Assembly (NCBI GenBank): GCA_021163365.1
Contig: JAGGWW010000007.1
Location: 13,929 to 77,928, forward strand
Length of the DNA: 64,000 nt
Source of the DNA: Nanobdellota archaeon
Lineage (GTDB): Archaea > Nanobdellota > Nanobdellia > CSSed11-243R1
Reading direction: 5' to 3'
The translations under genes and the position numbers were made by a program. Positions within the stretch are counted from its first letter, which is position 1, and the number at the start of each line of letters is the position of its first letter. Positions 20,063 through 41,989 of this stretch are shown here, one piece after another. Under the pieces are notes generated by a model. That model saw only the letters and a list, made by a program, of their open reading frames with translations. It did no database searches and had not been told where the DNA came from.

Positions 20063-20866
20063 TTCTTCTTTTCTTTTTACTAATTCTCTCATCTTTCCTT
20101 CAAAATCTTCTGCCATTTCCCTATATCTATCAAAATCAACACCATTACCCCTTAAAATCTCTCCATGAACAATTGCTTTTGCTGTTTTCCAAATTTCTCT
20201 GTAGTAATTAACATATTTTTTTGCAAGAAGTTTTTTTGATACAAATGTATCCATTAGCATTTTTTCAATGTGCTCTGGAGATGGTGGAACCTTTCCATAT
20301 GCCATTAATGCAGCATGAGCAGAGTCAATCATCACCCAATACAAATCAACTAATCCAGCAAGAATTCTTGAATTTGCTCTTGTTAAATGCCATGGAGCTC
20401 TTGTTAAAGCATTGTAAATTGCTTCTTTGCTTGGACGAATTCTTCCAGCTGCTAACAAAAATTGTAAAGGTTCAAAGTACCCAGTATCAATTAAAGGTAC
20501 ACCATATCTAAGAACATTTATTGCAACAGGTTCTCCAACAAGGATGTTTTCCCAAAACGTTGTTAGTGTTACTGTTGTAACATGTAAGCGCGGGTCACTT
20601 TTTCTAATTAACTTTGCAAGCTCTAAGTTATACCAATCAATGAATTTTCTCGTTGGTGCTACAGAGGTATCATCAACAATTATCAGTATATCTATATCGC
20701 TTCCTTTTTCAGGAACAGCTTTTGCTATAGAGCCAAATAAAACAACTGATTTTATTATTCCAGGAAAAAGTTCGAAAACATCTTTCGCAAATTTATAACC
20801 GATTTTATAAGCTTCCCCAACAAGTTTTTCTTTTTCTTCGTGTGTTAATTTTCTGTGCACAACCAT
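20045..20866 (-). CDS. Pol-beta-superfamily nucleotidyltransferase with a KNTase_C/HEPN-like helical domain; paralogue of 17902..19056
   Basis: VVLFGSIAKAVPEKGSDIDILIIVDD, and …DTGYFEPLQFLLAAGRIRPSKEAIYNAL…. Confidence 0.65.
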   Translation of the reverse strand: MVVHRKLTHEEKEKLVGEAYKIGYKFAKDVFELFPGIIKSVVLFGSIAKAVPEKGSDIDILIIVDDTSVAPTRKFIDWYNLELAKLIRKSDPRLHVTTVTLTTFWENILVGEPVAINVLRYGVPLIDTGYFEPLQFLLAAGRIRPSKEAIYNALTRAPWHLTRANSRILAGLVDLYWVMIDSAHAALMAYGKVPPSPEHIEKMLMDTFVSKKLLAKKYVNYYREIWKTAKAIVHGEILRGNGVDFDRYREMAEDFEGKMRELVKRKEESSSSV

Positions 20867-26877: not shown

Positions 26878-27429
26878 TTATTTTATGTTTGGCATTCCAT
26901 GTAAAGTATGTAAAATCAAAAAGTTGGTAATATGTTCTTGGCTGGGAAAACACAACACCAGCGCATGCATGTTGTTTATTTGGTGATATTTGTCCCCATA
27001 CATATCCTCTTTTACAAGAACAAAACGGGCATCTAAACCTGCTGCTTTTGCTAAAATAAGAAACAGCATTGTTTTATGGTAACATGTGCCATTGCCATTT
27101 GTTAGAATGTATTTAATCGCAGAACCTTTAAGTTCATCATTTGCTTTTTCATCGTAATCATACAAGAAGGTTATAGCCATGTAAATTGAAATTGCCTTTG
27201 AAAATTCATCATCCAAATCTTTTGTTATTTTCATTGCAATTTCATACAATGGCTTTGGTATGTACAATGGTGATTTTTCATTTAAAACAGCATATTCCAA
27301 TCCCTCAGAAAGCACAAATAAATCTTTATTAACATATTTTGAAAAATCATGCAAGGCTTTCAACCATCTCACCCAAACTTTTAACAAGTTGCATATTTCT
27401 ATAAACACCGCTATTTGGAAGAATTTCAT
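26878..27429 (-). CDS. Transglutaminase-like cysteine-protease-fold protein, paralogue 2 (last gene of the long operon)
   Basis: GNGTCYHKTMLFLILAKAAGLDARFV… parallels GTCYSMTRVYVALAKSVGLDARIV in the upstream gene. The annotated start overlaps the upstream gene by 83 nt, so the true start is probably internal. Confidence 0.5.
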   Translation of the reverse strand: MKFFQIAVFIEICNLLKVWVRWLKALHDFSKYVNKDLFVLSEGLEYAVLNEKSPLYIPKPLYEIAMKITKDLDDEFSKAISIYMAITFLYDYDEKANDELKGSAIKYILTNGNGTCYHKTMLFLILAKAAGLDARFVLVKEDMYGDKYHQINNMHALVLCFPSQEHITNFLILHTLHGMPNIK

Positions 27430-28159
27430 AAGAGCGCCAAAAGAAATTATATGCAGTTTTATAATCTTTTCTTCTTACACATTCTAAACCAGCTTCATTA
27501 AGAACGCGTGCTTTTTTACTTCTTAATTTTAATTCTTGTGTTGCATAACCACCAGTTAATTGAAGAGCGATCTCACAACACATATAAGCATCATCAAATT
27601 TTTTCTCTTCAATTAAGTTTTCAATTGCAGTATAGTATGGCTGAAGAATATCATATATTATCTCTTCATTTGTTTCTTTTCTTGTAAAAATCCTAACTTC
27701 TTTATGTTGTGCATCACCATCTTCATAAGCTGGGTCAAATAATAAGAATTTATCTTCATTAAACATAACACCAGCGCAAACATGCCCTGGATTAGTTATT
27801 TTTTCTCCATATTCATCAACATAAACTCTCACAATCCTTGCATCTAAGCCAACAGATTTTGCTAAAGCAACATACACTCTTGTCATAGAATAGCATGTTC
27901 CTTCCTTATGTTGAAGAGCATATAATATTGCACTTTTTCCATTTATCTCATCATTGTTATTTTTATATTTAATGTTATCAACAATCCAAGTATGTATTGC
28001 GTATGCTTTTACTCGCGAATCCTTTATTCCTTGCGTTATTTGATTTGCTAATAGAACAAGCTCTATTGGAATCTTTGGGATTGGCTCAGTGGTGTCTATC
28101 TCAATAAATCTCTTTGGGTTTGTTAGATGTATATTTCTAACTAAATCATCGAGGTGCAT
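27347..28159 (-). CDS. Transglutaminase-like cysteine-protease-fold protein, paralogue 1, with a C-terminal helical region
   Basis: Cys (EGTCYSMT), His (NPGHVCAGV) and Asp (FLLFDPAY) in the order and spacing of the transglutaminase-like core. Confidence 0.6.
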   Translation of the reverse strand: MHLDDLVRNIHLTNPKRFIEIDTTEPIPKIPIELVLLANQITQGIKDSRVKAYAIHTWIVDNIKYKNNNDEINGKSAILYALQHKEGTCYSMTRVYVALAKSVGLDARIVRVYVDEYGEKITNPGHVCAGVMFNEDKFLLFDPAYEDGDAQHKEVRIFTRKETNEEIIYDILQPYYTAIENLIEEKKFDDAYMCCEIALQLTGGYATQELKLRSKKARVLNEAGLECVRRKDYKTAYNFFWRSYEILPNSGVYRNMQLVKSLGEMVESLA

Positions 28160-28168
28160 TTAATCACC

Positions 28169-28399
28169 TCATAAATCTCTTAAAATAGCTAAGCCAGTAA
28201 TTATTGAAGTTAGTGCAACACTTGTTGTTGCAATTGCTTTATAATCAATACCATATATTGCTCCGTCTGGAATTGGCAAATAACCATAGAGATAATTCAT
28301 AACCTTTGAAGCGAATTCTGGTGAATACAACATGTATCCACCCATTCCAACTCCACCTACACCAATTCCAAGTTTCATTTTATTAAGCAAACCCATCAT
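28169..28399 (-). CDS. Small Gly-rich membrane protein (76 aa)
   Basis: GIGVGGVGMGGYML… and a C-terminal TM helix. 9 nt upstream of the transglutaminase-like gene. Confidence 0.4.
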   Translation of the reverse strand: MMGLLNKMKLGIGVGGVGMGGYMLYSPEFASKVMNYLYGYLPIPDGAIYGIDYKAIATTSVALTSIITGLAILRDL

Positions 28400-28512
28400 C
28401 CCACCTCACAAATAATTCAAAGTCAAATTTACGCGTGCAGCTATTGCATAGGGTTATGCCTTCTTTTTTCTTTGTTTCACATTCACTTTTACAAAAAACG
28501 CACTTTTCCAAA

Positions 28513-29688
28513 TTAACTCACCTGTTTCCTGTGTTCATCAATTTTATTAACTAATTCTTCTAAATCTTTGAACTCCTCAGAAACCTTGTCTTTGTGCCTT
28601 TTGTATTCATCAACCCATCTGTATAATGACGAGCGTGTGTCTTTAATTACCTCAACTAAATCAGCGTGACATAGTTTTCTACTTGGGTCTTTAATGTGTT
28701 CTTTTAAAGCCCTTCTTCCTGCTTCTGCACATATTGCTGTTATATCTGATGATGCATAGTATTGCGTCATTCTTGCTAATTCATCATAATTAATATCATT
28801 TGAAACTAACAACCCGTCAAGTGATAATTTAAACAATTCTTTTCTTGCTTCAAAATCTAATGGGTCAACTCTTATATGATAGCCAAATCTACCAGACCTT
28901 AAAAGAGCTGAGTCAATTCCCCAAACCTTGTTTGTTGTTCCAACAACTAAGACTGATTTTCCTGTTATTATATCAAATGATGATAAAAACTGATTAACTA
29001 ATCTTTGAGCATAAGATGACCTATTTCCACTTCTCGACATTCCTATTCCATCTATTTCATCAAAAACAATTATTGCTGGTTCTTTTTCTGCTGCTTCTTC
29101 AAAAACTCTTTTTAGATTCTTTTCGCTAACTCCAACGTATGAACTTAAAACACTGCTTGCATCAATGTAAAGAAATGTCACTTTCTTGCCTAATCTTTTA
29201 CTTGCTTCTCCTGCTGCAGCTTTTGCTATGTATGTTTTTCCACAGCCTGGTGGACCATACAATATTATTCCGCTTGCCATGTAATCCTTTTTTACAAACT
29301 TGAAAAACAAATCTGGATTTTCTAATGGCAATATTATTGCATTGTAGAACCTGTCTTTTACTTCTTGCATACCAGCAACTTTGTCAAATGTTAAATCTGG
29401 AATTTCTACTTCAAATGATTTTACAACATCTTCTTTATCATCTCCTTCTCTAATTGCTGTTTTCTTTGGTGCTGACAATGCTTGAGCTTTTGCTTTACAT
29501 ATTTCAATTTGATTTTGAAATGCATTTATTGCTGTTTCATCTTTGCATAACTTTGTTGCTTTCAAAAGCTCTTGAGCTGCTCTTATGTAATTAATCGCTG
29601 CTTGATTGTAATTTTTAGTAGCTTCTTGTTCTCTTGCTATTTTTACATATTCATTCGCTGCTGCAACATGAGGTGTGTATGAGTCCAA
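28513..29688 (-). CDS. MIT-domain AAA+ ATPase of the Vps4/CdvC-spastin-katanin ('meiotic') clade
   Basis: The N-terminal three-helix region (AAANEYVKIAREQEATKNYNQAAINYIRAAQELLKATKL) resembles a MIT domain. Single AAA cassette with Walker A ILYGPPGCGKTY, Walker B IIVFDEID and a second-region-of-homology/Arg-finger segment (…SALLRSGRFGYHI). Confidence 0.8.
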   Translation of the reverse strand: MDSYTPHVAAANEYVKIAREQEATKNYNQAAINYIRAAQELLKATKLCKDETAINAFQNQIEICKAKAQALSAPKKTAIREGDDKEDVVKSFEVEIPDLTFDKVAGMQEVKDRFYNAIILPLENPDLFFKFVKKDYMASGIILYGPPGCGKTYIAKAAAGEASKRLGKKVTFLYIDASSVLSSYVGVSEKNLKRVFEEAAEKEPAIIVFDEIDGIGMSRSGNRSSYAQRLVNQFLSSFDIITGKSVLVVGTTNKVWGIDSALLRSGRFGYHIRVDPLDFEARKELFKLSLDGLLVSNDINYDELARMTQYYASSDITAICAEAGRRALKEHIKDPSRKLCHADLVEVIKDTRSSLYRWVDEYKRHKDKVSEEFKDLEELVNKIDEHRKQVS

Positions 29689-30245
29689 ATGATCACCTCC
29701 TTTTTAAATCCAAGAAGCTCTTCAAGGTCTTCTTCAAGTTTATTTATTTCTAGCCGCTGTGGTGAGACTTCGTTTGAGAGATATTCTTCCATTAGTTCTT
29801 TTCCTCTATAGGGCTTTAACATGGATTCTCGCTGCGAAATAAACAGCAGATCTAAAAAAAATTCCCTTAATTCTTCAGCTGCCGTAAAACCACGCTTAAT
29901 AGTATACCTATCACTAGCAGAGTTTTCTATCGAATACCTTAATCCTTCGATTATTTTTTTAAGTGCAACCACATAAAACTCTAATGCGCATGTATTCTTT
30001 ACATACCTAGCATGTGTAGTCATCCTTTCTGCTAAGAAATCCCAATATTTCTCTGCTTCCTCTAGTTTTCCTTCGTCTGTTAGAGCCTCTGCCTTTGGCC
30101 GTATTGTGTCTATTTCTCTTCTTAATGTTCTTACTGATGTAACATAGCGTGTTAGTTTTTCTGATGCTTCTTCAAATCTCTCTTCCAGCTCTCTAATTTT
30201 TCTCCTGTACCATAACGCCATGAAAAAACCAAACATACGCACCAC
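29643..30245 (-). CDS. Coiled-coil protein, candidate ESCRT-III/Snf7-PspA-superfamily member (paralogue of 30259..30840)
   Basis: N-terminal amphipathic MVRMFGFFMALW. Shares LTDEGKLEEAEKYWDFLAERM with its neighbour. Acidic C-terminus with EEDLEELLGF. Overlaps the AAA gene start by 46 nt. Confidence 0.45.
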   Translation of the reverse strand: MVRMFGFFMALWYRRKIRELEERFEEASEKLTRYVTSVRTLRREIDTIRPKAEALTDEGKLEEAEKYWDFLAERMTTHARYVKNTCALEFYVVALKKIIEGLRYSIENSASDRYTIKRGFTAAEELREFFLDLLFISQRESMLKPYRGKELMEEYLSNEVSPQRLEINKLEEDLEELLGFKKEVIIWTHTHLMLQQRMNM

Positions 30246-30258
30246 TGTTTAACGTTGT

Positions 30259-30840
30259 TTATGCAACAGCGCCTTGTAATTGTTGAAGTTGTCTCTCTAA
30301 TTCGCTTTCTTGTGTTTGTATTTGTGATTCTCTTGCTTGTTTCTTTTTCAAATATTCTTGCATTAGTTGTTCTCCTTCTGTTGTCAATTGTGTATCTATT
30401 ATGTAATCCCTAGAATATGTATGTACTTCCTCTGCACTTTCTACATCATTCAAAACAGCCTCTATTCCATCGTCCCTTTCTCCAATCTTTGCTTTTTTCT
30501 TTTTTATCCTCTTCAAAGCACGTTTAGCAATGCGTTCTAATTTCTTTGTGTTGTATTGAGTGTCCATTAATTCATTACCAATTTTTTGTGAAGCAACCTC
30601 CCATGCTCTTCTTTTCCTCTCATATAATTCAAACTGCTTCTTTGCTTTTGCTACTTGATTCCAATACCTCTTTGCTTCATCTAATCTTCCTTCATCTGTT
30701 AATTGCTCTGCAAGTGTTCTGTTGTAATCCATGTTAGCTTTTGCTGTTCTTGCTTTTTGTTCGTACGTTTTTGCCACTGCTCTTGCGCTTTCCAAGTCAG
30801 CTGGTTTCACATAGCCAAGTAAGCTAAATAACCCCAACAT
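30259..30840 (-). CDS. Coiled-coil protein, candidate ESCRT-III/Snf7-PspA-superfamily member with a MIM1-like C-terminal helix
   Basis: N-terminal MLGLFSLLGY. A basic helical hairpin (…KRRAWEVASQKIGNE…KRALKRIKKKKAK), then an acidic tail ending SELERQLQQLQGAVA (L-x-R-x-L-x-x-L, close to MIM1 D/ExxLxxRLxxL[KR]). Conserved LTDEGRLDEAKRYW with the neighbour. Confidence 0.45.
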   Translation of the reverse strand: MLGLFSLLGYVKPADLESARAVAKTYEQKARTAKANMDYNRTLAEQLTDEGRLDEAKRYWNQVAKAKKQFELYERKRRAWEVASQKIGNELMDTQYNTKKLERIAKRALKRIKKKKAKIGERDDGIEAVLNDVESAEEVHTYSRDYIIDTQLTTEGEQLMQEYLKKKQARESQIQTQESELERQLQQLQGAVA

Positions 30841-30844
30841 CTTT

Positions 30845-31873
30845 TTACACCTCCTTTTTTATTAGATATCCCTCTCCAAGAGGGAAGAGCATGGTTTTTT
30901 CTAAGTGCCTTAAAGATTTCTTAGATAGATTTAAATCATGTGTTAAAAACCTCTTAGAAACAACATCGTTTTTTGCATTTTCTTTTATTACGTCATAAAT
31001 TGATTTAAATCTATCATCAGTAAAATAAACTTTGTAGTAACCTGCAGCTGTATCTTTTTCGTTATATATAAGTGTGTTGCTCGATAGTTCATAAATGAAT
31101 ACTGGATAACTACCAAAGTACCCATTTACAAATTCTTTCAATTCATCGCTTGCTTTTTGAACAACATAACAAGTGATTTCTTTTTTCTTTGACTTCTTAG
31201 TTATCTCATCCATTGTTGGTTCTTTATTTTTATATTCGCAAACAATTTTGAAATCTTTATGTTTGCCGATAACCTTTTTTTCTTTTTTATTATATGTAAC
31301 CTTTAATTTTCCTGTTAAAATCTCGCCTTTTGGGTATGGAACATAGTCTGGAGGAAATCTTTCTAACTTTGAATAAACTTTTAACAAATAGTGCGACTCG
31401 TCCTCACGTTCTTTTTCCTCTTTAAGAATGTAAACATCATTTAATTCAATTGATTTCTTTACCTTTTGTAATTCACGTGAAAATTCCGTTAGTAAATAAT
31501 CACCAAACAACTTTCTTGATTTTCTAATATAATCTGCGTTTGCTGTTTTTTTAACTAATGAGATTCTTTCATGAACAGCTTCTAAGAGTTCTTTTTGTTC
31601 TTTTCTTTCATCATATGTTTCTCCAATTATCAAATTATCAACATTAGACTTTAATGTAAGAACATCCATTCTAATATCTGATAAAGAGTTCCAATACTTT
31701 GTCCAATCTTCATCTTTGTTTAAATAAATCTCTTTTCTTGTTGATTCAACTAATGTTTCTAATGAATCCAAATCCTTAGCTATCTTGTTTGACAAATCTA
31801 TTATTTTCTTTTCATATCTCCACGACATAAACTTCTTGTAAACACCTTCAATTAACAATAGGGCCAAACTCAT
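30845..31873 (-). CDS. Membrane-anchored hypothetical protein (342 aa)
   Basis: Single N-terminal TM (SLALLLIEGVYKKF), then a K/E-rich soluble region. Overlaps the upstream gene by 26 nt. Confidence 0.45.
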   Translation of the reverse strand: MSLALLLIEGVYKKFMSWRYEKKIIDLSNKIAKDLDSLETLVESTRKEIYLNKDEDWTKYWNSLSDIRMDVLTLKSNVDNLIIGETYDERKEQKELLEAVHERISLVKKTANADYIRKSRKLFGDYLLTEFSRELQKVKKSIELNDVYILKEEKEREDESHYLLKVYSKLERFPPDYVPYPKGEILTGKLKVTYNKKEKKVIGKHKDFKIVCEYKNKEPTMDEITKKSKKKEITCYVVQKASDELKEFVNGYFGSYPVFIYELSSNTLIYNEKDTAAGYYKVYFTDDRFKSIYDVIKENAKNDVVSKRFLTHDLNLSKKSLRHLEKTMLFPLGEGYLIKKEV

Positions 31874-33026
31874 CTTCTACCCCCCTTAGGATTTGTTCGA
31901 AGGTTCTTCTAAAGTAAGACTTAACTTTATTTTCATCAAGACGAGGGTCAAAAGCACTTACTAAGTTGCCTAAGCCATCACCATATTTCTCAGAAAGCTC
32001 TTTAATAGCGTTCTCCCTTCCCTTAAAGATTGTATTTAGAATATCAATAAGTTCATCTCTTGTAATTCCACTTCTTGCTTTTTCAACTGCAGAGGTAAGT
32101 TGTTCTATTTTTCCTTCAATCGTATCTATTTCTTCTGCACTAACGCCTTTAATAGCATCTATCTTTTTTTCAAGCTCGTAAATAGCGCTGTAAACATCTC
32201 TTAACAACCTTTCTTCTACTTCGCTTTGATTATCAACAGCATGCTGAAGTTTGTCAAGCTCTTCTTCAATTTTATACAATCTTTCATTGTATTTTTCTTT
32301 TGCAATTGTTTGCTTTAATCTATCTATGTCTTGTTTGATTTCACTTAATCCGACGTCTAAAACCTTTGCAAGTTCTTCATTTGATTTATAAAGACTTGAT
32401 ATTTCTCCTTCTAAAACACGAACTTTTCTTTCTAAATTTCTAGGCACTTCTTGATACTCATCTAACTTATTCTCAAGTATCCGTTGAGCAGAAAAAACAG
32501 CTTCTTTTATAGAATTTTCAACATCTTCCAATTCCTTTTGTGAAACCATTGTTTTGTTTTTATAATTGAAAACAAATTGCGAATCAATTAATTTTATACC
32601 CATATTTGACATAGCGTAAGACATCTTAGTGTGTGCATGTGCTTCAAATTCATTTTTTGAATCAACTATTTCCTCCAAACTCTTTGTTTGTAAATAGTCA
32701 TCAGCTATTGCCTTTGTTTTGCTAAACATAATTCCATCTAAGCACTCTTGTGGTGTTTTGTACGATGGAAGCCTTGTTAACAACTTGTTGATGTTTTGAT
32801 ACTCAACTGTGTAAAGTGCAGTAATCTCTATCTCATAACCGTCCTTTGAATAGCTGCTAAAAACATATTTAAGTTCAGAATCCAAATCAGCGTATATCTT
32901 TGCATTTTGTGGCCCAACATATTGCTTCTTTATTTTTCCTTTTTTTCTTTTAGCAACAATTGTTCTTGGAGAAGCAAGGCGCTCCCAGGATTTAACCTCC
33001 ACCCCATTTTTAATTCCCTTTACCAT
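31848..33026 (-). CDS. SPFH/band-7-like protein with a long C-terminal coiled coil (flotillin-like architecture)
   Basis: N-terminal …GPQNAKIYADLDSELKYVFSSYSKDGYEIEITALYTVEYQNINKLL… is compatible with the SPFH core (TKDnv.v.vd.vv.yrv.d). Residues about 170-330 are heptad-rich. Confidence 0.4.
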   Translation of the reverse strand: MVKGIKNGVEVKSWERLASPRTIVAKRKKGKIKKQYVGPQNAKIYADLDSELKYVFSSYSKDGYEIEITALYTVEYQNINKLLTRLPSYKTPQECLDGIMFSKTKAIADDYLQTKSLEEIVDSKNEFEAHAHTKMSYAMSNMGIKLIDSQFVFNYKNKTMVSQKELEDVENSIKEAVFSAQRILENKLDEYQEVPRNLERKVRVLEGEISSLYKSNEELAKVLDVGLSEIKQDIDRLKQTIAKEKYNERLYKIEEELDKLQHAVDNQSEVEERLLRDVYSAIYELEKKIDAIKGVSAEEIDTIEGKIEQLTSAVEKARSGITRDELIDILNTIFKGRENAIKELSEKYGDGLGNLVSAFDPRLDENKVKSYFRRTFEQILRGVEDEFGPIVN

Positions 33027-33142: not shown

Positions 33143-34222
33143 CTAGTTTAAATTTGGATTTTTAACGTAAAACCCGTATTTATCTTTGTATTTTGCATAT
33201 ATAGAATAAGCTTTCCTTAAAGCTTCATTTTTTAAAGATGGGTTTTTATCAGCAAAGCTTTCTAAAGCATCTTGTATGCCTCTTAAATCTTTTAATCCTT
33301 CTTTTACAGCTTTTTTATAATACTTTATCCCTTTTCTTAAATGTGATTTGTCATTGCCTTTCAAAAGATGATATATAGATGCGACTTCATATGCAAATGC
33401 GCTGTTGATTCTGAATAAAATATTGATTAACTCTTCTGCATGAGGCTCATCAAACTTTTCAATGGTAGAAACAATGGTTTCAGTTAAACACATATTTTCT
33501 CCAACTACTTGTTTTGCTTTGTTAACGATGTAGTCTTCAAAAAAGAGGAGAGTGTTATTGTTGCAAATCCTCTTAAAAACTTCAGCAAAAGATACAAAGT
33601 CTTTTATATACTTATCATACACTTCTTGTACCAATTCTATTGCTTTATCTGAAATATACATATCAACATCATCTATCGTATCAGCAATTTCAAGAAATTT
33701 TTCACCATCCAATGTAACACCATTGTTAATGAGGGTTTTAATTGTGCGTTCTTTTATAACATCATCATCTATATCTTTAAGCACTTTAATATCTTTAGTA
33801 ATAAGAATATAACTAGCGTACATATCTGCTGCTTCTAGAGGATACCAACATGTCTTCGCGGTATATAAAAGTCCTAATGTTGTATTTGGACCCACGCTTC
33901 TTTCTAATTCCTTCTTTAAGTCAATGTTGTTCATTGCAACGTAAATGTCCATAAACAATGAAAGGTTTACGTTAACATACTTACGTAGCAAATCTATTAA
34001 TGGCTGCTTTTCATTAACAAACTCCAATTCTCTAATAAGTGCTAATAAATCTGACTTATGCAGATAGGATACTTTTCCATCTCTCAAAAGATTCTTAATC
34101 CATGCCTGTAGCAAATTCTTATAATCTTCTTCATCCAATCCAAGTTCTTCGTGCGAATATTTCCAAGGCTCCCAATTTGGATTAGATTTGTACATAGTAT
34201 CTAAAATTTCTTCCAATTCCAT
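33143..34222 (-). CDS. Unknown-family protein, tandem paralogue C (NWEPWKYS…GL…DY N-terminal motif)
   Basis: Shares an N-terminal W-x-P-W-K-x-S-x-x-x-x-G-L-x-x-x-D-Y block and a C-terminal Y.KA(V/L)K.G(L/W)..L..IQ..L..FA………AL..I..IY block with 34667..35710 and 35704..36525. Confidence 0.5.
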   Translation of the reverse strand: MELEEILDTMYKSNPNWEPWKYSHEELGLDEEDYKNLLQAWIKNLLRDGKVSYLHKSDLLALIRELEFVNEKQPLIDLLRKYVNVNLSLFMDIYVAMNNIDLKKELERSVGPNTTLGLLYTAKTCWYPLEAADMYASYILITKDIKVLKDIDDDVIKERTIKTLINNGVTLDGEKFLEIADTIDDVDMYISDKAIELVQEVYDKYIKDFVSFAEVFKRICNNNTLLFFEDYIVNKAKQVVGENMCLTETIVSTIEKFDEPHAEELINILFRINSAFAYEVASIYHLLKGNDKSHLRKGIKYYKKAVKEGLKDLRGIQDALESFADKNPSLKNEALRKAYSIYAKYKDKYGFYVKNPNLN

Positions 34223-34657
34223 TTAAACCACTGGCTTAAGACTTTTTAGATAAACCAAAGCAATCTCATAATCTCTTCCGCTTAATTCTTTTTTCGCATA
34301 TGATTTTAAACGTTCAACATCTTCTTTTCTTAAAAATGGATGAACAAATCTTTCTCTTTTTGAGTTATCCACATAGAAAATTCCTTCTTCTCCACTTAAA
34401 GTAAAAATAATCATATCTAAAGATGGTTTTTTAGATAAATAATCAACAAACCCTTTTCTATTCCCAACAACTTGCTCTGCGTTATTTATAAAATCATGCA
34501 TATCCTTAACTAATCTTTGAAAGTAATTATCAAAAACATGGCTTGCTTGTTTTTCTAAAATATTTTTCAAATTTAACTTATCACTTTCGCACATTTGCTC
34601 AACATTTAAAGGAATACCTTTCAAAAAATTTGATAAATATCTTTCAATCTCTACCAT
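34223..34657 (-). CDS. Hypothetical protein (144 aa)
   Basis: ORF. Stop abuts the start of paralogue C, and the start lies 9 nt after paralogue B. Confidence 0.45.
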   Translation of the reverse strand: MVEIERYLSNFLKGIPLNVEQMCESDKLNLKNILEKQASHVFDNYFQRLVKDMHDFINNAEQVVGNRKGFVDYLSKKPSLDMIIFTLSGEEGIFYVDNSKRERFVHPFLRKEDVERLKSYAKKELSGRDYEIALVYLKSLKPVV

Positions 34658-34666
34658 TTTACCACC

Positions 34667-35710
34667 TCAAACCTTTTTCTTTTTCATGTACTTCTCTATC
34701 TTCTTAGCTGGATTCATTGAATTAAGTAAATAAGACGCAATTCTATCAATGAAAAAGCCCAATGGGAGTGCAAAATAAGTAGTGGAAACAAATGCAAAAT
34801 CAGTGTAATCATAGTAATAATATGTCTCATGAACACCGCTACTATCCCATTCACAAGTATGCGCATATTCGCCTGAAGTAGCTGCAGCAAGTGCTAAAAG
34901 CATTGCTGATTGGATTGCTGCAATCTTAAGTGCAGTTGTTTTATTCCAAACTTCGCTGTACTCCAAATCAAAATCTTCTAAAGAAATAAGCTCTCTTGGG
35001 TTTAATGCAAATTCTGGATTCTTCTTATAAATATTAACTATGCTCCTTAATGCTAAATAAGAGTAGAACCTATTGCTTTGTTTCACATCTTCTGCAAAGT
35101 TATACAATGCCTTTTGAAGAGCTTTTAAACCATCTTTATACTTTAAAGCATTCCAATAATGTGGGAATCCTTTTATTGCCATGCGCTTTCTTTTTCCAAC
35201 CTCTTCATCAGCAGTAAGATGTGCTACTGAAAGCAATATGTGTTTTATTGGATTTTTTGATTTACTTAATAATTTCTCTAATGTCTCAACATCTTCTTTT
35301 TTCAAATCATACAATAAATCAATCTTTTCATTAAGTATAACTTCATTAAGCAAACTGTAGTCATTTGTACTATGAATTACTTCAGCTAATGTAAAGATAC
35401 CTGAGATACCTGTTGAATAAAGCATCTTTACTGATTCATAGCTATTAGCTACAATATCTTCTCTTGGGTTTAACTCTTTAGCTCTTGACATAAGCACATC
35501 AGCGAGCTCGAAAATATCTCTGCTATTTTTTAACAAACCATTATCCAAAGCTCTTTTAGCATATCTATTAAGCAAAAGCAAATAATCTCTTTTTGACAAA
35601 CCAAAGTCCTTTGGTGATTTTTTCCACGGCTTCCATTGAGAATCTTCCATATTTTCGCCAATAATTTTTTCCAAATTTGGGGGCTTGTACATTTCCATTT
35701 TTATCACCAA
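34667..35710 (-). CDS. Unknown-family protein, tandem paralogue B (QWKPWKKSPKDFGLSKRDY), with a hydrophobic C-terminal extension
   Basis: Conserved N- and C-terminal blocks as for paralogues A and C. An extra about 80-aa C-terminus with a hydrophobic segment (ALKIAAIQSAMLLALAAATSG). Confidence 0.5.
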   Translation of the reverse strand: MVIKMEMYKPPNLEKIIGENMEDSQWKPWKKSPKDFGLSKRDYLLLLNRYAKRALDNGLLKNSRDIFELADVLMSRAKELNPREDIVANSYESVKMLYSTGISGIFTLAEVIHSTNDYSLLNEVILNEKIDLLYDLKKEDVETLEKLLSKSKNPIKHILLSVAHLTADEEVGKRKRMAIKGFPHYWNALKYKDGLKALQKALYNFAEDVKQSNRFYSYLALRSIVNIYKKNPEFALNPRELISLEDFDLEYSEVWNKTTALKIAAIQSAMLLALAAATSGEYAHTCEWDSSGVHETYYYYDYTDFAFVSTTYFALPLGFFIDRIASYLLNSMNPAKKIEKYMKKKKV

Positions 35711-36525
35711 TTTTCAAGTATGTAAATAATCTTATCTTTGATTGTTTTTCTTTGGATATATCTGTCAATCAAATTTGCTAAGTTAAAGAAAAACAAACGT
35801 TTATCAAAATAATCTAATTGTATAATATCCTGTGGCTTCTTTGAGTCAAAAGGATTATTTCTGTAAATTTTAACAATCTCCTTAAGTGCAGTTATTGAAA
35901 GTAATGGATGCACTTGCTTAGCAAACTCATGCAGTTCTTCTTGAATCGCAAGAAGATTTTCCCATCCTTTTTTCACAGCTTTGTTTTTATACCAAAGTGC
36001 CTTGTCCAAGCTTAAAAGTTTGTTTGTATTAAGATGATATAGGGATATCAAAAAATAACCAAGGGCTGTTTTTTTCTTTTTTAATCTTTTTATATCCTTT
36101 TTTGAGAACTTTTTAACAATATCTTTGTTTTCCAAAACAAATTTAGTAACTGCATTGTTTTTATATTTTGACTCGCTTCCATGTGTAACCAAATAAACTA
36201 ATGCTTCTTTTTTGTCTTTACTAATCTTTAAATAATCCAGGTATAAATCCTTTGCAGTGCTATGTTCGCCTTGTGCAAGTCTTTCTGCTAAGTCAAATTG
36301 GTAATCAAAACGTTTACGCTCAAAGATGTGTAATTCTAAAATCTTCTCTGCCCAATAGCATAAAAATGAATCAAAATCATCTTTTTTAAGATTAACTTCT
36401 TCAGGTGAAACACTTAAAGGATTCCAATCACTATTATGTTTAAATAATTTATCAACGAGCTCGGGTAATTCATCTTCGTATTTGAATGCATAATCCACTT
36501 TAACCACCAAGATATTTTTCAACAA
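35704..36525 (-). CDS. Unknown-family protein, tandem paralogue A (DWNPLSVSPEEVNLKKDDF)
   Basis: Conserved blocks as above (ALWYKNKAVKKGWENLLAIQEELHEFAKQVHPLLSITALKEIVKIYRNNP). Confidence 0.5.
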   Translation of the reverse strand: MLKNILVVKVDYAFKYEDELPELVDKLFKHNSDWNPLSVSPEEVNLKKDDFDSFLCYWAEKILELHIFERKRFDYQFDLAERLAQGEHSTAKDLYLDYLKISKDKKEALVYLVTHGSESKYKNNAVTKFVLENKDIVKKFSKKDIKRLKKKKTALGYFLISLYHLNTNKLLSLDKALWYKNKAVKKGWENLLAIQEELHEFAKQVHPLLSITALKEIVKIYRNNPFDSKKPQDIIQLDYFDKRLFFFNLANLIDRYIQRKTIKDKIIYILENW

Positions 36526-38035
36526 GCAATCTATATTTATCAGGAATTAAATCCAAGACATTTTCATCTTTCTTTTTTATTAACTCATCTACTAACTCCT
36601 TCTTTTTTTCTTTTATTTCACCCATACTCACTTTTATTAAAGTAGGAAGATAATCAAATCTTATTTCATCAACAGGCGTGTATTTCGCAATATTTTCTAA
36701 TAAAATAATTCCTCCAACAAGAGTTTCTGAATCAACAACATTCTTAGCATAAAAAAGCTCATTAGCTATAACCTCTGCTGTAGCCATACTATAAATATGC
36801 TTGTAATCTTCATCTTTAACACTTTGATGTTTTCCAGATAGTTTGTGGAAATTCCTCACCAAACTATCGGAAACAAACATGCTTGCAAAATTTCTTATTT
36901 CTTCTGATGCTTCCTTCTTATAAAGCGATGCATATGTTAAATATCTGGCAGTTAAATAAACCATCTCTGGGAAGTCTTCATAGTTAAACACATCTATCAA
37001 ATCGCTAAGCTTTGATTCATTATCTAATGGTTTTTCATAGATATCTCTAACTATTTCATAAAATGTTTTACCATATTTCGAAAAAATATACCTGTGTGCT
37101 ATTGAAAGACGTTCTTCTCTTTTAGAAAGATTTAGCAAATCATTGAAAAAGCCAGTCATATCTTTGCTTAGGTTCTCAAATATTCCATCAAATTCATCAT
37201 TAGATATCCTATCTATAACATTAATCTCCTTTCTTTTATTTAAATAAGCACCTCCGAAGCTAGATATGAAATAAATAAAAGCTTCATTATCTTCAAGTGT
37301 TGCTACTAATTCATTTGTTTTTTTGAGAAAATTCAACAAGCCGTTCAATGTTGAATAACCAAAAGCACTAAAAACATTGTTATCTCTTTCAACCAATTTT
37401 ATGAATTCATTAACAGAAATCGCATGACCGCTCCCTAAGCTAAGATTTGCAGTTTTCTGAAACCCTATTGAAATAACTTTTTCAATTGTATCTTTTCTAA
37501 CCTGATTATATCCAAATGACAAAGCAGAAACCAACTTATTCTCATTTAGAACGCCTATCTTTTTCTCAAAATCATTTGTTACATCTTTGTACTTTTCTAA
37601 GAAATCATTTACAAACGTAAAACTTATATCTAAAGATGGAGTTATTTCTAAAAACTCAGACAATTCTTTTACGAACCTCGTATCTTTTTCAACTAAAGAA
37701 TAAAGTTTTTCGATTGAAGTTTCTTCTGGAACAACTGGTACAAAAGAAATATCAACATATGTAAGAAGAGAATAAAACTCTTTGTTTATAGAATCAATAG
37801 CTTTCGGCAGATAATTTTTGCATTTTTCATAAAGCACGCCATTAACAATGGTTGCAGTGCTTTTTCTTCTATCTGCATCTTCTAATTCATATATTGCTGT
37901 ATCAATAAGGTCTTCTAATTTTTTTGTTTCCATACCATATTGCTTAAAAACACTAATCAACTCTCTTAACATCTCCAATTCATCCTTTGTTTTCAGCACA
38001 TCATTTAAAAGCCCATCAAATGGCATATTTATCAC
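36500..38035 (-). CDS. Hypothetical protein (511 aa)
   Basis: Long ORF, overlapping both neighbours (20 and 26 nt). Helical, D/E/K-rich. No family recognised. Confidence 0.5.
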   Translation of the reverse strand: MINMPFDGLLNDVLKTKDELEMLRELISVFKQYGMETKKLEDLIDTAIYELEDADRRKSTATIVNGVLYEKCKNYLPKAIDSINKEFYSLLTYVDISFVPVVPEETSIEKLYSLVEKDTRFVKELSEFLEITPSLDISFTFVNDFLEKYKDVTNDFEKKIGVLNENKLVSALSFGYNQVRKDTIEKVISIGFQKTANLSLGSGHAISVNEFIKLVERDNNVFSAFGYSTLNGLLNFLKKTNELVATLEDNEAFIYFISSFGGAYLNKRKEINVIDRISNDEFDGIFENLSKDMTGFFNDLLNLSKREERLSIAHRYIFSKYGKTFYEIVRDIYEKPLDNESKLSDLIDVFNYEDFPEMVYLTARYLTYASLYKKEASEEIRNFASMFVSDSLVRNFHKLSGKHQSVKDEDYKHIYSMATAEVIANELFYAKNVVDSETLVGGIILLENIAKYTPVDEIRFDYLPTLIKVSMGEIKEKKKELVDELIKKKDENVLDLIPDKYRLLVEKYLGG

Positions 38036-39920
38036 TCACACTTTTTACATCAACATAATCATCAAGGTAACTAGTTTCATATGCTGCAAGAGCATCGTAA
38101 GAATGTTCAAGTTCATTAAAATAAGAAATAATGTCAAGCTTAAGCTTCAAATACTTTTTATAATCAACATATGTTATGAAATCTCCACTTTCCTTTAAAA
38201 TATCAATTGCTTTAACTAACTTTGTAATCAAGTCTGTTTGCTTATACAAAATCAAATAACGCATTAAAGTATACCTGTTTATCTCTTCTTTATTTTTTAA
38301 CTTCCTTTCTTCAAAATCATTTAATCTTTCTTCAAGCCCACCTTGGACTTCTGAAAAATATTTGTAATCTTCATTAAGAATGCAGTTAGTATAATTCTCC
38401 CATGATTCAAAAAATCTCTTTACATGTTTTCCTTTAAGTTTTGGCTCAAGCAAAACAGCTTTAATTGGATCCACAGAATTTTCTATAATTTTACTAAGTT
38501 CTTTATAACCTCCATCTCCTTCTATTTCACAAAGCACATCCCACAAAAATGGATTCAATGAATCTTTGTTAATAGCTTCATCTATAAGCTTGCGCGCTTC
38601 TTCATGTTTGCCATTTTTGAATTTAGCAAGTGCAAGCCTACCTCTTAAAGAGGAATCATACAAACTTGGCACAACACTATGTATACTTAACTCTTTCTGT
38701 AGACTAACTGCTTTTTGAAGCAATCTCTCTGCTTGTTCATAATCCTCTACCATAAGTTTAACCCCACCAGCAAAAGCGTAGTAAAAACCATCTTCTTCTA
38801 TCATTTTCTTTGCTAACTCAGAAGAAAGCTCGCCTATGTTTGAGATTTTTTTAAGCAAATCCTTTAAAATAGGTAAATCATCCTTTAAATCATTATATAA
38901 ATCTCCTTCTGCGTGTTCGATTTCTTCTGCATATTCGATTAAATCCTCACCGACAATAAGTGCAACAGAGTAAAAGATATCCCTTTTATCTTTATCCATA
39001 TTTTTATAACTCTCTATAACTCTTCTTGCAGTATCCTTTGAATAATTAATTAATTCTGTGTAATGTTCTCGGGGCATTTTAATTCCTATTTGTGCTTCTT
39101 TAACAAAAAGGCGCTTGAAGTAATTGAAGAACTTAACAAAACCCATAATCTCTTGATAATTAAATTCATATGTGTCTCTTCCTCTTTTTACATCCAATGC
39201 TTTTCTTGCTACTTCTTCATAATCTGAATACAAACCACTTAAGAAAAGCAATTTACCTTCTTGGAATATCTTTTCATAAATACCTTCATCAGAATAAGCA
39301 GGCCTACATCTAATCCTTATTCTAAATGCTTCAATTGTTCTAAGAATTGCTTTTGCCATCTTATTGCTTGCTACTTTTTTATTTCCATTGGTAAGTGCCA
39401 TTGCAATTGCTTCTATGGCATCCCTCTTACATGTAGTAAACAACTCTTCTCCTTCATATTCTGGAACATTCATTACCCTTGGATCGAATCTTAAGTCTTC
39501 AATTATCTTTTTTCCAGCTTCTGTTTTGCCTGTCATTGTAACATAAAAAAGTCTGTAATACGGTGCAATATTACCCCAGCCTTCATTAGAACGTGTTAAT
39601 GTTAAAAGCAAAGAAGAAACATCTAGATTAAAATAATACTCTAATGGTGCAAGAAAGATTGTTACATCATAGTCATCGTGTTCTTCTGCAATTTCATCAA
39701 GTGTTTTTTTAATTCTCTTGTAATTTTCTGCCTCATCATAATATTTAAAGCGCTCTGGGTTTAATTCATCATGTTTAAGCAGCAAAACCAAATCAATGTC
39801 AGAGCATGGGTCTGTGCTTCCAAATGAGAATAAAGAAAACCTTTTATCCCTAAGATTAAGCTTACTAAGAATCTCAGATACTATTTCCTTTTTAACTTCC
39901 TCTCTGCCCATCGTTATCAC
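38016..39920 (-). CDS. Nucleotidyltransferase (Pol-beta fold) fused to a long TPR-like helical domain (634 aa)
   Basis: N-terminal FSLFSFGSTDPCSDIDLVLLLKHD (hG[GS]…DxD) with a third acidic residue in DYDVTIFLAP. The remaining about 480 aa are helical repeats. Confidence 0.6.
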   Translation of the reverse strand: MITMGREEVKKEIVSEILSKLNLRDKRFSLFSFGSTDPCSDIDLVLLLKHDELNPERFKYYDEAENYKRIKKTLDEIAEEHDDYDVTIFLAPLEYYFNLDVSSLLLTLTRSNEGWGNIAPYYRLFYVTMTGKTEAGKKIIEDLRFDPRVMNVPEYEGEELFTTCKRDAIEAIAMALTNGNKKVASNKMAKAILRTIEAFRIRIRCRPAYSDEGIYEKIFQEGKLLFLSGLYSDYEEVARKALDVKRGRDTYEFNYQEIMGFVKFFNYFKRLFVKEAQIGIKMPREHYTELINYSKDTARRVIESYKNMDKDKRDIFYSVALIVGEDLIEYAEEIEHAEGDLYNDLKDDLPILKDLLKKISNIGELSSELAKKMIEEDGFYYAFAGGVKLMVEDYEQAERLLQKAVSLQKELSIHSVVPSLYDSSLRGRLALAKFKNGKHEEARKLIDEAINKDSLNPFLWDVLCEIEGDGGYKELSKIIENSVDPIKAVLLEPKLKGKHVKRFFESWENYTNCILNEDYKYFSEVQGGLEERLNDFEERKLKNKEEINRYTLMRYLILYKQTDLITKLVKAIDILKESGDFITYVDYKKYLKLKLDIISYFNELEHSYDALAAYETSYLDDYVDVKSVSDKYAI

Positions 39921-39931
39921 TTTAAAGTAGA

Positions 39932-40690
39932 TTATATTTCATAAACTTTTCCCTTAGAAAGTATCTCTAGATTTGTTTGCATATTCTCTGGAACATGAAC
40001 AAGATAAAGCCTTTCTTTAACATCATCTGGCAATGCTTCTAAGTTTCTAACATGTGTGTGAAAATATTCACCAAATTCATCAGTTGCTTCATGTAAAATT
40101 ATATGACAATCCCATCCAAAATCAATATTATTGTGGAAAAATTCTTCATCTATAATTCCATTGTAAAACAAGTGTTTTAAAAGTCTGGGATTGTAATTTG
40201 TATCTCCACTATAAAACAATCTTTTACCATCATATTCAAATATAAAACCAAATGCAGGCACAGGATGATAATTTTCTCTAATCCTTATTGATATTCCATT
40301 TTCTTTAAATTCTTCACCAACCTTTAGTTCTTTAAATTCAACTAAATCATCTAAATCAAACACTGTGGCTTTTGTAACATTATTTGGAAGTGCATAGCTT
40401 GGAGGATTTCTAAACATGATATCAAATATTTCCTTAAATCTGTTAAAAACCTCTTTTGTTGTATAAATCTTTGTTTTTTTGTTTGATTTATATCTCTGTA
40501 AAAGAAGTGTGAATATATCGCCAAGATGGTCTGGGTGCACATGTGTAAGGATAATATTATTAATCTCCTGTGCATTAATCTTTGATATATCTTTTGGACA
40601 TTCAACAAGATAAACATCACTAGCGTAAATTAAAAAAGAAGTGTTTTCTATTGAAGTTGCATTTCCTATTCCAAGTGCTTTTATTCTCAC
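39932..40690 (-). CDS. Metallo-beta-lactamase-fold hydrolase (first gene of the long minus-strand operon)
   Basis: ILTHVHPDHLGD (HxHxDH) plus downstream His/Asp ligands. 11 nt upstream of the NTase-TPR gene. Confidence 0.7.
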   Translation of the reverse strand: MRIKALGIGNATSIENTSFLIYASDVYLVECPKDISKINAQEINNIILTHVHPDHLGDIFTLLLQRYKSNKKTKIYTTKEVFNRFKEIFDIMFRNPPSYALPNNVTKATVFDLDDLVEFKELKVGEEFKENGISIRIRENYHPVPAFGFIFEYDGKRLFYSGDTNYNPRLLKHLFYNGIIDEEFFHNNIDFGWDCHIILHEATDEFGEYFHTHVRNLEALPDDVKERLYLVHVPENMQTNLEILSKGKVYEI

Positions 40691-40789
40691 AGAAAAATTA
40701 AGACATTTTAAAGATAATAATGAAAAGTGCTTATTTTTGCTGAATAAAATTTCAGAAGATTTAAATATTGAAACTTAATTAGTAAATAC

Positions 40790-41989
40790 ATGGATTTTGA
40801 AGAATATTTCAGAAAAACAATAGATTTTGTAATCAAAGAACAAAAAGCACAAGGAATATGGAGCAAAAGAATCAAACACAATGAGCCAAGAGAACTTTTT
40901 AGAAGGATTGTACCAACAAAAGAAGCTGTTGAAACATTAATATATACTGGTGCTTATGGAAATTCCAAAGTAATTAAAGCTGGAATTAAAAACATACTTG
41001 ATTATGAACTTGAAGAGGCAGACCCATTAGAACTTTGGGCAACGAAGCTAAGGATTGCGGAAATTGCTAATAATAAAGAAATTATAAAAGAAATCTCAAA
41101 ATGGCTTAGAAATAAAAACATCCTAAGCACACGATTGCCCATGTTGTTTTCTATGATGTTATCAGAAGCAATAGGTGAAAACATAGACTTAATAAAAAAG
41201 TTAAAAAAAGCAAGAGCAAGAGATGGCAAAGGATGGGGAAGAATTGTTAAGGATTCTAAATCGTACATTACATTTACATCAAACGCTGTAATAGCATTGA
41301 TACTTGCTGGAGAAAATCCAAATGAAACATATCTTCAAAAAGCAAGAATATTTATTGAAAAATCTCAAAATAAAAATGGGAGCTGGAATTCAAGCCCAGA
41401 AACACTTACTAAACCAACAACATATGCAACAGCATTGGCTGTTCAAGCACTAATGCTTCTTTCAAAGAATCCATTTAACAAAGCAGTAAATAACGGAATA
41501 TCCTATTTATTAAAAACAGCACATAAAAAAGGAGGCTGGCCACTTATTAAAAATGAAGAACCCGAGATATATACAACAATGTATGCTGTGAAGACATTGA
41601 GATTCTATAATTATTTAAAAGAAAACAATGAAGAATATTTATCAAAGTTTCTAACACCTCAACAGCTAAGCTGCTATTTGTTTAAAAAATTCACATTCGA
41701 TTATCCAAAGGAAAAATTGATAGATATTTGCATTAAAGACCTTCTTTCATCAAAAGCTATTGCTGCAACACCTTCTGCAATTAAAAGGAGAAGAGACATA
41801 ATAAAAATTCTAATGAAACACACACTTGATGTTGCTGGCATAATAGATAAGTTAAATCAAATGGGATATCACCTAAATAAAAAATCTCACATGACTCAAA
41901 TAAAGTTTGATGTTGAGCATTTAAGAGAAATGAACTTAGTTGATAGAATTAAAAATAGGTACTTCGTTGTTGTTGATTTAGGATTTTAA
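40790..41989 (+). CDS. Prenyltransferase/terpenoid-cyclase-like alpha-alpha-toroid repeat protein
   Basis: Repeated Q/GxW units (KAQGIW, GKGWGR, KNGSWN, KKGGWP) of the squalene-cyclase/prenyltransferase beta-subunit repeat type. Divergent from the long operon. Confidence 0.45.
   Translation: MDFEEYFRKTIDFVIKEQKAQGIWSKRIKHNEPRELFRRIVPTKEAVETLIYTGAYGNSKVIKAGIKNILDYELEEADPLELWATKLRIAEIANNKEIIKEISKWLRNKNILSTRLPMLFSMMLSEAIGENIDLIKKLKKARARDGKGWGRIVKDSKSYITFTSNAVIALILAGENPNETYLQKARIFIEKSQNKNGSWNSSPETLTKPTTYATALAVQALMLLSKNPFNKAVNNGISYLLKTAHKKGGWPLIKNEEPEIYTTMYAVKTLRFYNYLKENNEEYLSKFLTPQQLSCYLFKKFTFDYPKEKLIDICIKDLLSSKAIAATPSAIKRRRDIIKILMKHTLDVAGIIDKLNQMGYHLNKKSHMTQIKFDVEHLREMNLVDRIKNRYFVVVDLGF

Follow-up and report, generated by a model that had tools for sequence, protein, structure and literature searches.

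Archaea of the DPANN group are tiny symbionts with genomes of about 1 Mb. A 64,000-nucleotide stretch from a Nanobdellota archaeon (contig JAGGWW010000007.1, positions 13,929 to 77,928), hereafter called the window, contains a gene for a hydrolase of the metallo-β-lactamase (MBL) fold, followed by a gene for a Pol-beta nucleotidyltransferase (NTase) fused to TPR-like repeats. What does this NTase make, and does the hydrolase encoded next to it act on the product? A first-pass annotation had suggested that the two might form a nucleotide-signalling module at the head of a large operon of effector-like proteins. Here, the locus and its two proteins were compared with those of related archaea and with known families. 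The NTase forms a rare family of its own, and in several lineages it is coupled to a phosphoesterase, which is of one or the other of two unrelated folds. We favour, at a probability of about 0.4, a reading of the pair as an antagonistic switch that adds and removes a nucleotide, the product being a free nucleotide-derived signal, either cyclic or short and linear.

Genomic linkage of the NTase

The MBL gene (39932–40690, minus strand), as read from the sequence, encodes 252 amino acids from a GTG start. The NTase gene (38016–39920, minus strand) encodes 634 amino acids from a GTG, or 631 from the ATG at 39911, which is the annotated start, and the spacing between the two genes is 11–20 nucleotides. 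Both open reading frames are real: they are 100% identical to J7K22_01145 (MBL) and J7K22_01140 (NTase-TPR), annotated as hypothetical proteins in a metagenome-assembled genome of a 'Nanoarchaeota archaeon', and the motifs quoted earlier for them (HVHPDH, FGSTDPCSDIDLVLL and DYDVTIF) are present. The pair does head a putative operon, as had been proposed. It opens a series of 16 genes that all point the same way and extend from 40690 to 26878, in which most junctions are overlaps or single-digit gaps and two gaps measure about 110 nucleotides. Upstream of the MBL gene, which is gene 1 of the run, there is a divergent intergenic region of 99 nucleotides (40691–40789), in which the TATA-like sequence TTTAAA stands about 20 nucleotides before the MBL start, and this region is the putative promoter.

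An Apyc1-like MBL gene is found immediately 5' of the NTase gene in six lineages, which are the window and L007, L008, L013, L030 and L032. In three other lineages, L003 (comprising L003 and L036), L005 and L014, the same position is occupied by a gene for an HD phosphohydrolase. The HD proteins of L003/L036 and L005 have 195–197 amino acids with intact H..HD..D motifs (YHNxxH..HD..D), and the 195-residue protein of L014 is called HD by a sub-threshold Pfam match only (18.8 versus 22 bits; E = 0.002). Class I cyclic-nucleotide phosphodiesterases are among the weak matches of the HD proteins, and the nearest characterised relatives of both types of phosphoesterase are nucleotide or cyclic-nucleotide phosphodiesterases. 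The gap between the phosphoesterase and NTase genes ranges from −17 to +20 nucleotides, the gene ends often overlapping by 8–17 nucleotides or standing 1–2 nucleotides apart. Judged from the sequences, the exchange of MBL for HD in this slot is a non-homologous displacement. That two unrelated folds fill the same translationally coupled slot speaks strongly, on comparative grounds, for a phosphoesterase that acts on the product of the NTase, and the linkage supports a conserved, tightly coupled pair with putative adding and removing functions. The phosphoesterase is nevertheless dispensable, as it is absent from one marine Woesearchaeota clade, in which a toroid gene runs straight into the NTase gene, and from the complete 919-kb genome CP070803.1, in which the NTase and toroid genes are unlinked.

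The most constant partner of the NTase is this toroid gene, which in the window lies across the divergent region (40790–41989, plus strand) and encodes a squalene-hopene-cyclase-like α/α-toroid protein (Pfam SQHop_cyclase_C, 1.7e-12). Its profile matches the squalene-hopene cyclase 2sqc with E = 1e-19. At least 12 genomes contain both the NTase and the toroid protein, and the toroid gene lies beside the NTase family in every locus of which both ends are visible, except in one genome in which the two are unlinked. The C-terminal domain of the toroid protein, about 100 residues long (residues ~300–399), is strongly conserved, carries the motif KKSHMTQIK.D.E.L and gave a faint winged-helix match only (SelB_WH1, E = 0.03). 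The closest relative, L001, shares synteny with the window across Cdc6, toroid gene, MBL, NTase-TPR, a 511-residue protein, an SPFH-like protein, a 342-residue protein, an AAA ATPase and a transglutaminase-like protein; six additional genes, one of them ThiF/E1-like, are found between MBL and NTase.

The MBL-fold phosphodiesterase

The fold proposed earlier for the MBL protein is borne out by a significant match to Pfam Lactamase_B_2 (E = 2.4e-14; 53.9 bits, the cut-off being 27). The HVHPDH motif corresponds to H50, H52, D54 and H55. Like D163, H211 and H232, these residues do not vary, and a histidine occupies motif 3, so that the set of metal ligands, as expected for a binuclear-metal enzyme, is complete. 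The best solved relative by sequence is Apyc1, which aligns from end to end with E = 6e-9 for the single protein and 4.5e-25 for the profile. Behind it, the profile also has strong matches to RNase Z and ELAC2 (2e-20 and 2e-16, respectively), and RNase Z is the best NCBIfam match, at 40.3 bits against an equivalog cut-off of 293. RNase Z, however, aligns in two stretches around its exosite (flexible arm) insertion while Apyc1 aligns in one, which indicates that the MBL protein lacks this insertion. Its score against the Pfam family Anti-Pycsar_Apyc1 (PF23023) is 22.9 bits, below the gathering threshold of 50. The MBL protein thus belongs to the class II phosphodiesterase branch that includes Apyc1, YhfI and RNase Z, with an architecture that most resembles Apyc1, and it is a member of neither curated family, because it falls below the thresholds of both PF23023 and the NCBIfam RNase Z model.

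Apyc1-type enzymes and YhfI hydrolyse cyclic nucleoside monophosphates (PMC9117128). The MBL protein shares with these class II cyclic-nucleotide phosphodiesterases a length of about 250 residues, the lack of the RNase Z exosite, the HxHxDH motif with the other metal ligands and a match over the full length. In contrast to Apyc1, which is encoded by a phage anti-defence gene and opposes a Pycsar cyclase, the window protein, known here from its sequence, is chromosomal and archaeal and is coupled to an NTase. Two bacterial MBL homologues, P0004 and P0005, were dropped as candidate parts of the system, their contexts being bacterial and unrelated.

Family, architecture and active site of the NTase

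An exhaustive profile search with the N-terminal 300 residues among 1.84 billion representatives yielded 8 proteins at E < 1e-3. About 18 distinct NTase loci are known in total when the members found by scanning for the partner toroid gene are added. No further members came from an NTase-pattern scan of genome contigs, and a word-indexed search with a 12-sequence NTase alignment gave no matches. All named sources are DPANN archaea (Woesearchaeota, Pacearchaeota, Aenigmatarchaeota and 'Nanoarchaeota'), and the window protein is the founding member of this rare, DPANN-specific family.

The NTase-TPR protein can be described as composed of four parts. The Pol-beta core, residues 1–100 (39621–39920, minus strand), contains FGSTDPCSDIDLVLL, which provides G34, S35, D41 and D43, and DYDVTIF, which provides D85. 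It is followed by a family-specific helical lobe, residues ~110–280 (39081–39593, minus strand), with the conserved motifs EGWGxLA, TGKTxxGK, VPxxEGxEL and KLAKAILR; K190 and G136 are invariant in this lobe and K245 and G157 nearly so. The third part is a TPR-like solenoid, residues ~284–495 (38436–39071, minus strand), and the fourth consists of three long, coiled-coil-like C-terminal helices, residues ~497–618 (38067–38432, minus strand), which are seen in the predicted secondary structure. In an AlphaFold 2 (AF2) model of the N-terminal 300 residues, with a mean confidence (pLDDT) of 70.6, the lobe is all-helical (pLDDT 74–92). The core is modelled as helix 6–20, strands 28–33 and 42–48, helix 65–80 and strand 86–92, an arrangement as expected for the α-β-α-β-α-β core of the Pol-beta fold. 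In the solenoid, a single repeat exceeds its Pfam threshold (TPR_14, residues 428–465, 26.0 versus 23.5 bits), and the top Foldseek matches of this part are TPR solenoids, with probabilities of up to 0.99 and E values of 1e-3 or more. The first estimate of about 480 residues of TPR-like repeats was therefore too generous, as it had counted the lobe and the three long helices.

For the family as a whole, assignment to the Pol-beta superfamily holds, although the window protein alone is below the threshold of Pfam NTP_transf_2 (E = 0.03, 15.1 versus 21 bits): the homologues P0007, P0008 and P0010 exceed the gathering score, and the family profile matches solved NTases with E = 9e-6. The NTase-TPR proteins are a distinct and genuine family of two-lobed Pol-beta NTases. 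The S-D-x-D motif is invariant in all members examined, at about 20% sequence identity, and this, together with the conservation of G136, K190 and K245 in the lobe, argues for a working active site. All residues of the minimal active-site pattern first described, including the triad of three aspartates, are found; the distance from GS to DxD, at five residues, is outside the range of 9–13 in the canonical motif hG[GS]-x9-13-Dh[DE]h, to which a third carboxylate on the next strand belongs. A similarly short spacer occurs only in L007, where it has six residues; the P0002 orthologue has a canonical spacer of 10. Most MBL-linked members and the marine clade have the third acidic residue, D85 in the window protein. 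A third carboxylate at the aligned position (D/E-V/L-x-I/L-W/F) was counted in 6 of 7 MBL-linked NTases and in none of the 3 HD-linked ones.

Proposed function of the pair

A free signal is favoured as the product because both types of phosphoesterase, and the nearest sequence and fold matches of the NTase, point weakly in that direction. The active site of the NTase-TPR protein (D41, D43 and D85, with K190 and K245 of the lobe) would make a phosphodiester-linked nucleotide product, and its TPR and long-helix part would serve for sensing or docking. Hydrolysis of this product by the co-translated MBL protein, or by the HD protein in other lineages, would reset the system. The near-obligate toroid protein would be the candidate receptor, and the output would be the control of the Vps4/ESCRT-III-like proteins encoded in the same run and, in relatives, of E1 and JAB proteins. 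Such a division into synthase, receptor and reset enzyme agrees with a core of NTase and toroid protein that is constant and a phosphoesterase that is optional. The folds, the catalytic residues, the rarity of the family and the conserved linkage, with its displacement of MBL by HD, are shown by the data, whereas catalysis, product, receptor and output are inferred. To pair an enzyme that writes or synthesises a nucleotide with a phosphodiesterase of its own is a known logic, resembling that of GlnD, of RelA/SpoT or of a CD-NTase opposed by a phosphodiesterase; it is the NTase family itself that is new.

Several observations weigh against a free signal. The spacer between GS and DxD in the window protein (GSTDPCSDID) has 5 residues, compared with 10–11 in its relatives, and may impair the binding of the nucleoside triphosphate in this protein. 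The third carboxylate is absent from the aligned position in five lineages, which include all three HD-linked ones, and the NTase core is modelled with moderate confidence only (pLDDT 51–86). When the family was aligned with hhalign to six CdnE-type enzymes, taken from plasmids, the alignment covered 59 generic core columns at a probability of 70%, and SMODS (Pfam) had no match at E ≤ 0.05 in the window protein or its homologues. Matches of the N-terminal 300-residue model to folds in the PDB are insignificant, the best being HalB (E of 0.04 or more, TM score 0.27–0.36). No known sensor or effector domain for a second messenger was found with Pfam and PADLOC, and the toroid protein as receptor is purely a conjecture. 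Moreover, a phosphodiesterase encoded by the host in the operon of a signal synthase is less common than the writer and eraser pairs of protein modification.

The NTase profile itself finds CdnE-type CD-NTases as its best solved matches (E = 9e-6 and 1e-4), followed by the MNT proteins HI0073 and MntA and by KNTase, and all these matches span helix 1, strand 1, GS and strand 2 only. A control alignment of the family with the MNT-like protein of the window was as uninformative as that with the CdnE-type enzymes. In a Foldseek comparison with BFVD, the two-lobe model matched a 301-residue phage protein with an NTase domain (E = 1.2e-4, TM score 0.39, probability 1.0). The structural comparison called for by the first-pass annotation thus confirms a two-lobed Pol-beta NTase and leaves it in no firm clade, including that of the MNT antitoxins; on sequence and model, the family is not demonstrably a CD-NTase, an MNT protein or a HalB homologue. 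Of the two findings that would have refuted the earlier reading, an incomplete triad and a firm grouping with antitoxins, neither was made. Membership in the CD-NTases was rejected, the alignment to the six CdnE-type enzymes being limited to the generic core. As for the proposed nucleotide-signalling module, what stands is the conserved pair of NTase and phosphodiesterase, MBL-linked in six lineages and HD-linked in three, and what falls away is any evidence of CD-NTase or cGAS membership.

The likeness to known systems is partial in each case. With the CD-NTases of CBASS, in particular the CdnE clade and type II systems with a Cap2 E1/E2 and a Cap3 JAB protein, the NTase shares the Pol-beta core with GS and S-D-x-D, a two-lobed catalytic part of about 300 residues and, in the clusters of relatives, E1-like and JAB genes. 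It differs in its fusion to TPR, in the short alignable core, in the missing SMODS match and in the spacing from DxD to the third carboxylate, which is 42 residues here and about 72 in CD-NTases. Furthermore, the E1 proteins of relatives are Uba1-like rather than Cap2-like, the window itself lacks E1, as neither ThiF nor JAB was found in it, and no CBASS effector or sensor was found: the run of the window gave no Pfam or PADLOC match to a partner such as SAVED, STING, TIR, patatin or 2TM, or to Cap2 or Cap3. HalB of the Hailong system is a minimal NTase with a helical domain that makes a signal by tyrosine-primed synthesis of oligo-dA (PMC13434031); it is the best, albeit insignificant, PDB fold match for the NTase core and helical lobe, but HalB has no TPR part. 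A HalA-like channel partner was not recognised among the neighbours, at which no search for HalA was aimed. The core motif resembles that of the MNT proteins HI0073 and MntA (E = 4e-4 to 0.04) of MNT/HEPN (MntA-HepT) systems. MNT proteins, however, have about 100–140 residues, while the window protein has 634, which include the additional lobe, the TPR solenoid and the long helices, and its context is neither mobile nor defensive; no HEPN partner with the Rx4-6H motif matched among the window neighbours. In GlnD, a Pol-beta NTase adds a nucleoside monophosphate (NMP) and an HD phosphohydrolase removes it, and the two are encoded together, an arrangement that is seen in the HD-linked relatives. 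Here, however, the polypeptides are separate, ACT domains and a PII target are lacking, the sequence similarity does not extend beyond the superfamily, and the partner in the window is an MBL protein.

Protein nucleotidylylation is the next explanation, itself somewhat unlikely and yet no less coherent than a free signal and nearly as good in view of the TPR and coiled-coil scaffold and of the protein-modification flavour of the cluster. The NTase-TPR protein would dock a substrate (the toroid protein, an ESCRT-III-like subunit or itself) through its TPR and coiled-coil parts and AMPylate or UMPylate it, and the MBL or HD protein would remove the NMP in the manner of GlnD. TPR repeats and long helices are protein-interaction modules, and the clusters of relatives include E1-like, JAB and transglutaminase-like proteins along with an AAA unfoldase. 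Tight translational coupling is typical of writer and eraser pairs of protein modification, such as GlnD, GlnE and DrrA/SidD; among the matches of the NTase, MNT-type proteins and HalB are near, and DrrA is a weak profile match (E = 0.24). MNT-type NTases such as MntA nucleotidylate tyrosines. The nucleotidylation of tyrosine by HalB (PMC13434031) points the same way. On the other side, the nearest relatives of the MBL protein act on nucleotides or RNA; the lobe of about 170 residues is also nearer to the second lobe of NTases that make small molecules or oligonucleotides than to minimal protein AMPylators. We know of no MBL-fold enzyme that removes a nucleotidyl group from a protein.

A role at the 3' end of RNA is improbable. 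The NTase would extend an RNA by untemplated nucleotides, as in tailing or CCA-like repair, and the end would be trimmed or healed by the RNase Z-like MBL protein or by the HD protein. This would agree with the RNase Z and ELAC2 matches of the MBL protein, with weak MTPAP-like_central matches in several NTase members (E = 0.001–0.05) and with bacterial CCA enzymes, in which an NTase is combined with an HD domain. The MBL protein, however, is without the exosite insertion and scores 40 rather than 293 bits as RNase Z, no RNA-binding domain was detected, and the NTase family is far too rare for a core RNA-processing enzyme. A search of the window for tRNAs and Rfam families found neither tRNA nor other non-coding RNA.

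Least probable of all is a non-catalytic scaffold, in which the NTase-TPR protein would be inactive, in this genome if not in others, and the phosphoesterase would be an independent housekeeping enzyme, adjacent for historical reasons: the five-residue loop, the varying third carboxylate, the weak Pfam scores and the missing phosphoesterase of the marine clade and the complete genome would suit it, but not the invariance of S-D-x-D in every member and the conserved lobe lysines, nor the MBL-to-HD replacement in an identical, overlapping slot, which is hard to explain without functional coupling.

Remaining genes of the run and of the window

The genes downstream of the pair had been called effector-like; they instead encode Vps4/CdvC-like, ESCRT-III/PspA-like, SPFH-like and transglutaminase-like proteins, besides lineage-specific ones. 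The first is a 511-residue protein with no assigned function (36500–38035, minus strand), which overlaps the NTase stop and is kept only in the closest relative, L001. A lineage-specific block (33143–36525, minus strand) follows, with three paralogues of 273, 347 and 359 residues and a 144-residue protein, all without family matches. The 347-residue paralogue has a hydrophobic C-terminus, and the block fills the variable slot that in relatives contains E1, JAB and giant genes.

The distal block (26878–33026, minus strand) is conserved and comprises an SPFH-like protein, a 342-residue protein, two ESCRT-III/PspA-like proteins, an ATPase with MIT and AAA domains, a small hydrophobic protein and two transglutaminase-core proteins. 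Among the NCBIfam models, CdvC fits the ATPase (28513–29688, minus strand) best (2.6e-55), with a match over the full length that is below the cut-off. Its gene is preceded by those of two coiled-coil proteins of about 195 residues (29643–30245 and 30259–30840, minus strand) with an MGxFG-type N-terminus, which are weakly similar to PspA_IM30 (2.8e-4), to the Asgard ESCRT-III structure 9fn1 (0.009) and to CdvB (0.03). Together, the ATPase and the coiled-coil proteins may form an ESCRT-III/Vps4 module, albeit a divergent one, in this DPANN archaeon. A conserved hydrophobic protein of 78 residues (28172–28405) lies between the ATPase gene and those of the adjacent transglutaminase-core proteins at the distal end (26878–28159, minus strand). 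The second of the latter (183 residues) resembles a truncated duplicate and overlaps the first by 83 nucleotides.

The E1-like proteins of relatives have 470–520 residues and are found in L005 (17790–19346), L001 (6195–7700), L003 (17085–18500) and L008 (19443–20882). Their best matches are the eukaryotic proteins Uba1 and Uba6 (E = 3e-28, in two stretches), and Cap2 reaches 1e-13 only. Their N-terminal half resembles a second, degenerate Rossmann/adenylation domain, which suggests a pseudo-dimeric layout like that of Uba1 in DPANN archaea; a Cap2-like E1/E2 was accordingly rejected. In L005, the E1-like gene adjoins a Prok-JAB gene, and a giant open reading frame of 1200–1600 codons follows.

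Elsewhere in the window, which has a GC content of about 32% throughout, a second and unrelated NTase of 273 residues (20045–20866, minus strand; NTP_transf_2, E = 6e-10) has a helical C-terminal half and is an ordinary archaeal MNT-like protein. Its neighbour is a 562-residue protein with a xylose-isomerase-like TIM barrel. Rather than a defence island, the neighbourhood is a set of housekeeping genes, namely those for Orc1/Cdc6, mevalonate kinase, an ABCE1-like protein, an Obg-like GTPase and an MPG glycosylase. The host is archaeal, since Orc1/Cdc6, mevalonate kinase, the ABCE1-like protein and the CdvC-like ATPase are all encoded nearby. A PADLOC scan for defence systems gave no meaningful match, and with these housekeeping neighbours a defence system is disfavoured, though not rejected outright. 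A limited search of the literature, which is no proof of novelty, found no description of the cluster, and a survey of ESCRT systems (PMC11188069) does not mention DPANN, NTase or ThiF.

Significance

Despite their small genomes, DPANN archaea keep this cluster of 14–25 kb, whose proteins are almost wholly unannotated. The NTase and its phosphodiesterase offer a testable biochemical way into it, by way of the nucleotide that is added, its acceptor and whatever removes it. Were the product a signal, archaea would have a new second-messenger pathway, distinct from CBASS, Pycsar and type III CRISPR; were it an NMP mark on a protein, they would have a new writer and eraser system. In either case, nucleotide chemistry would be tied to Vps4/ESCRT-III-like genes and to Uba1-like E1 and JAB genes in archaea other than Asgard, which bears on the spread of eukaryote-like membrane and ubiquitin machinery. 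The fullest version of the proposal is tentative, and we hold it to be rather doubtful as a whole: a DPANN-specific nucleotide regulatory pathway in which a new NTase with its TPR sensor would work with the toroid protein, as its receptor or its substrate, and with a reset enzyme that can be of either the MBL or the HD type. This pathway would control an ESCRT-III/Vps4-like module for membrane remodelling and, in many of the lineages, conjugation by Uba1-like E1 and JAB proteins. If true, it would be a previously unknown form of archaeal signalling that links nucleotide chemistry to eukaryote-like cell-biology machinery.

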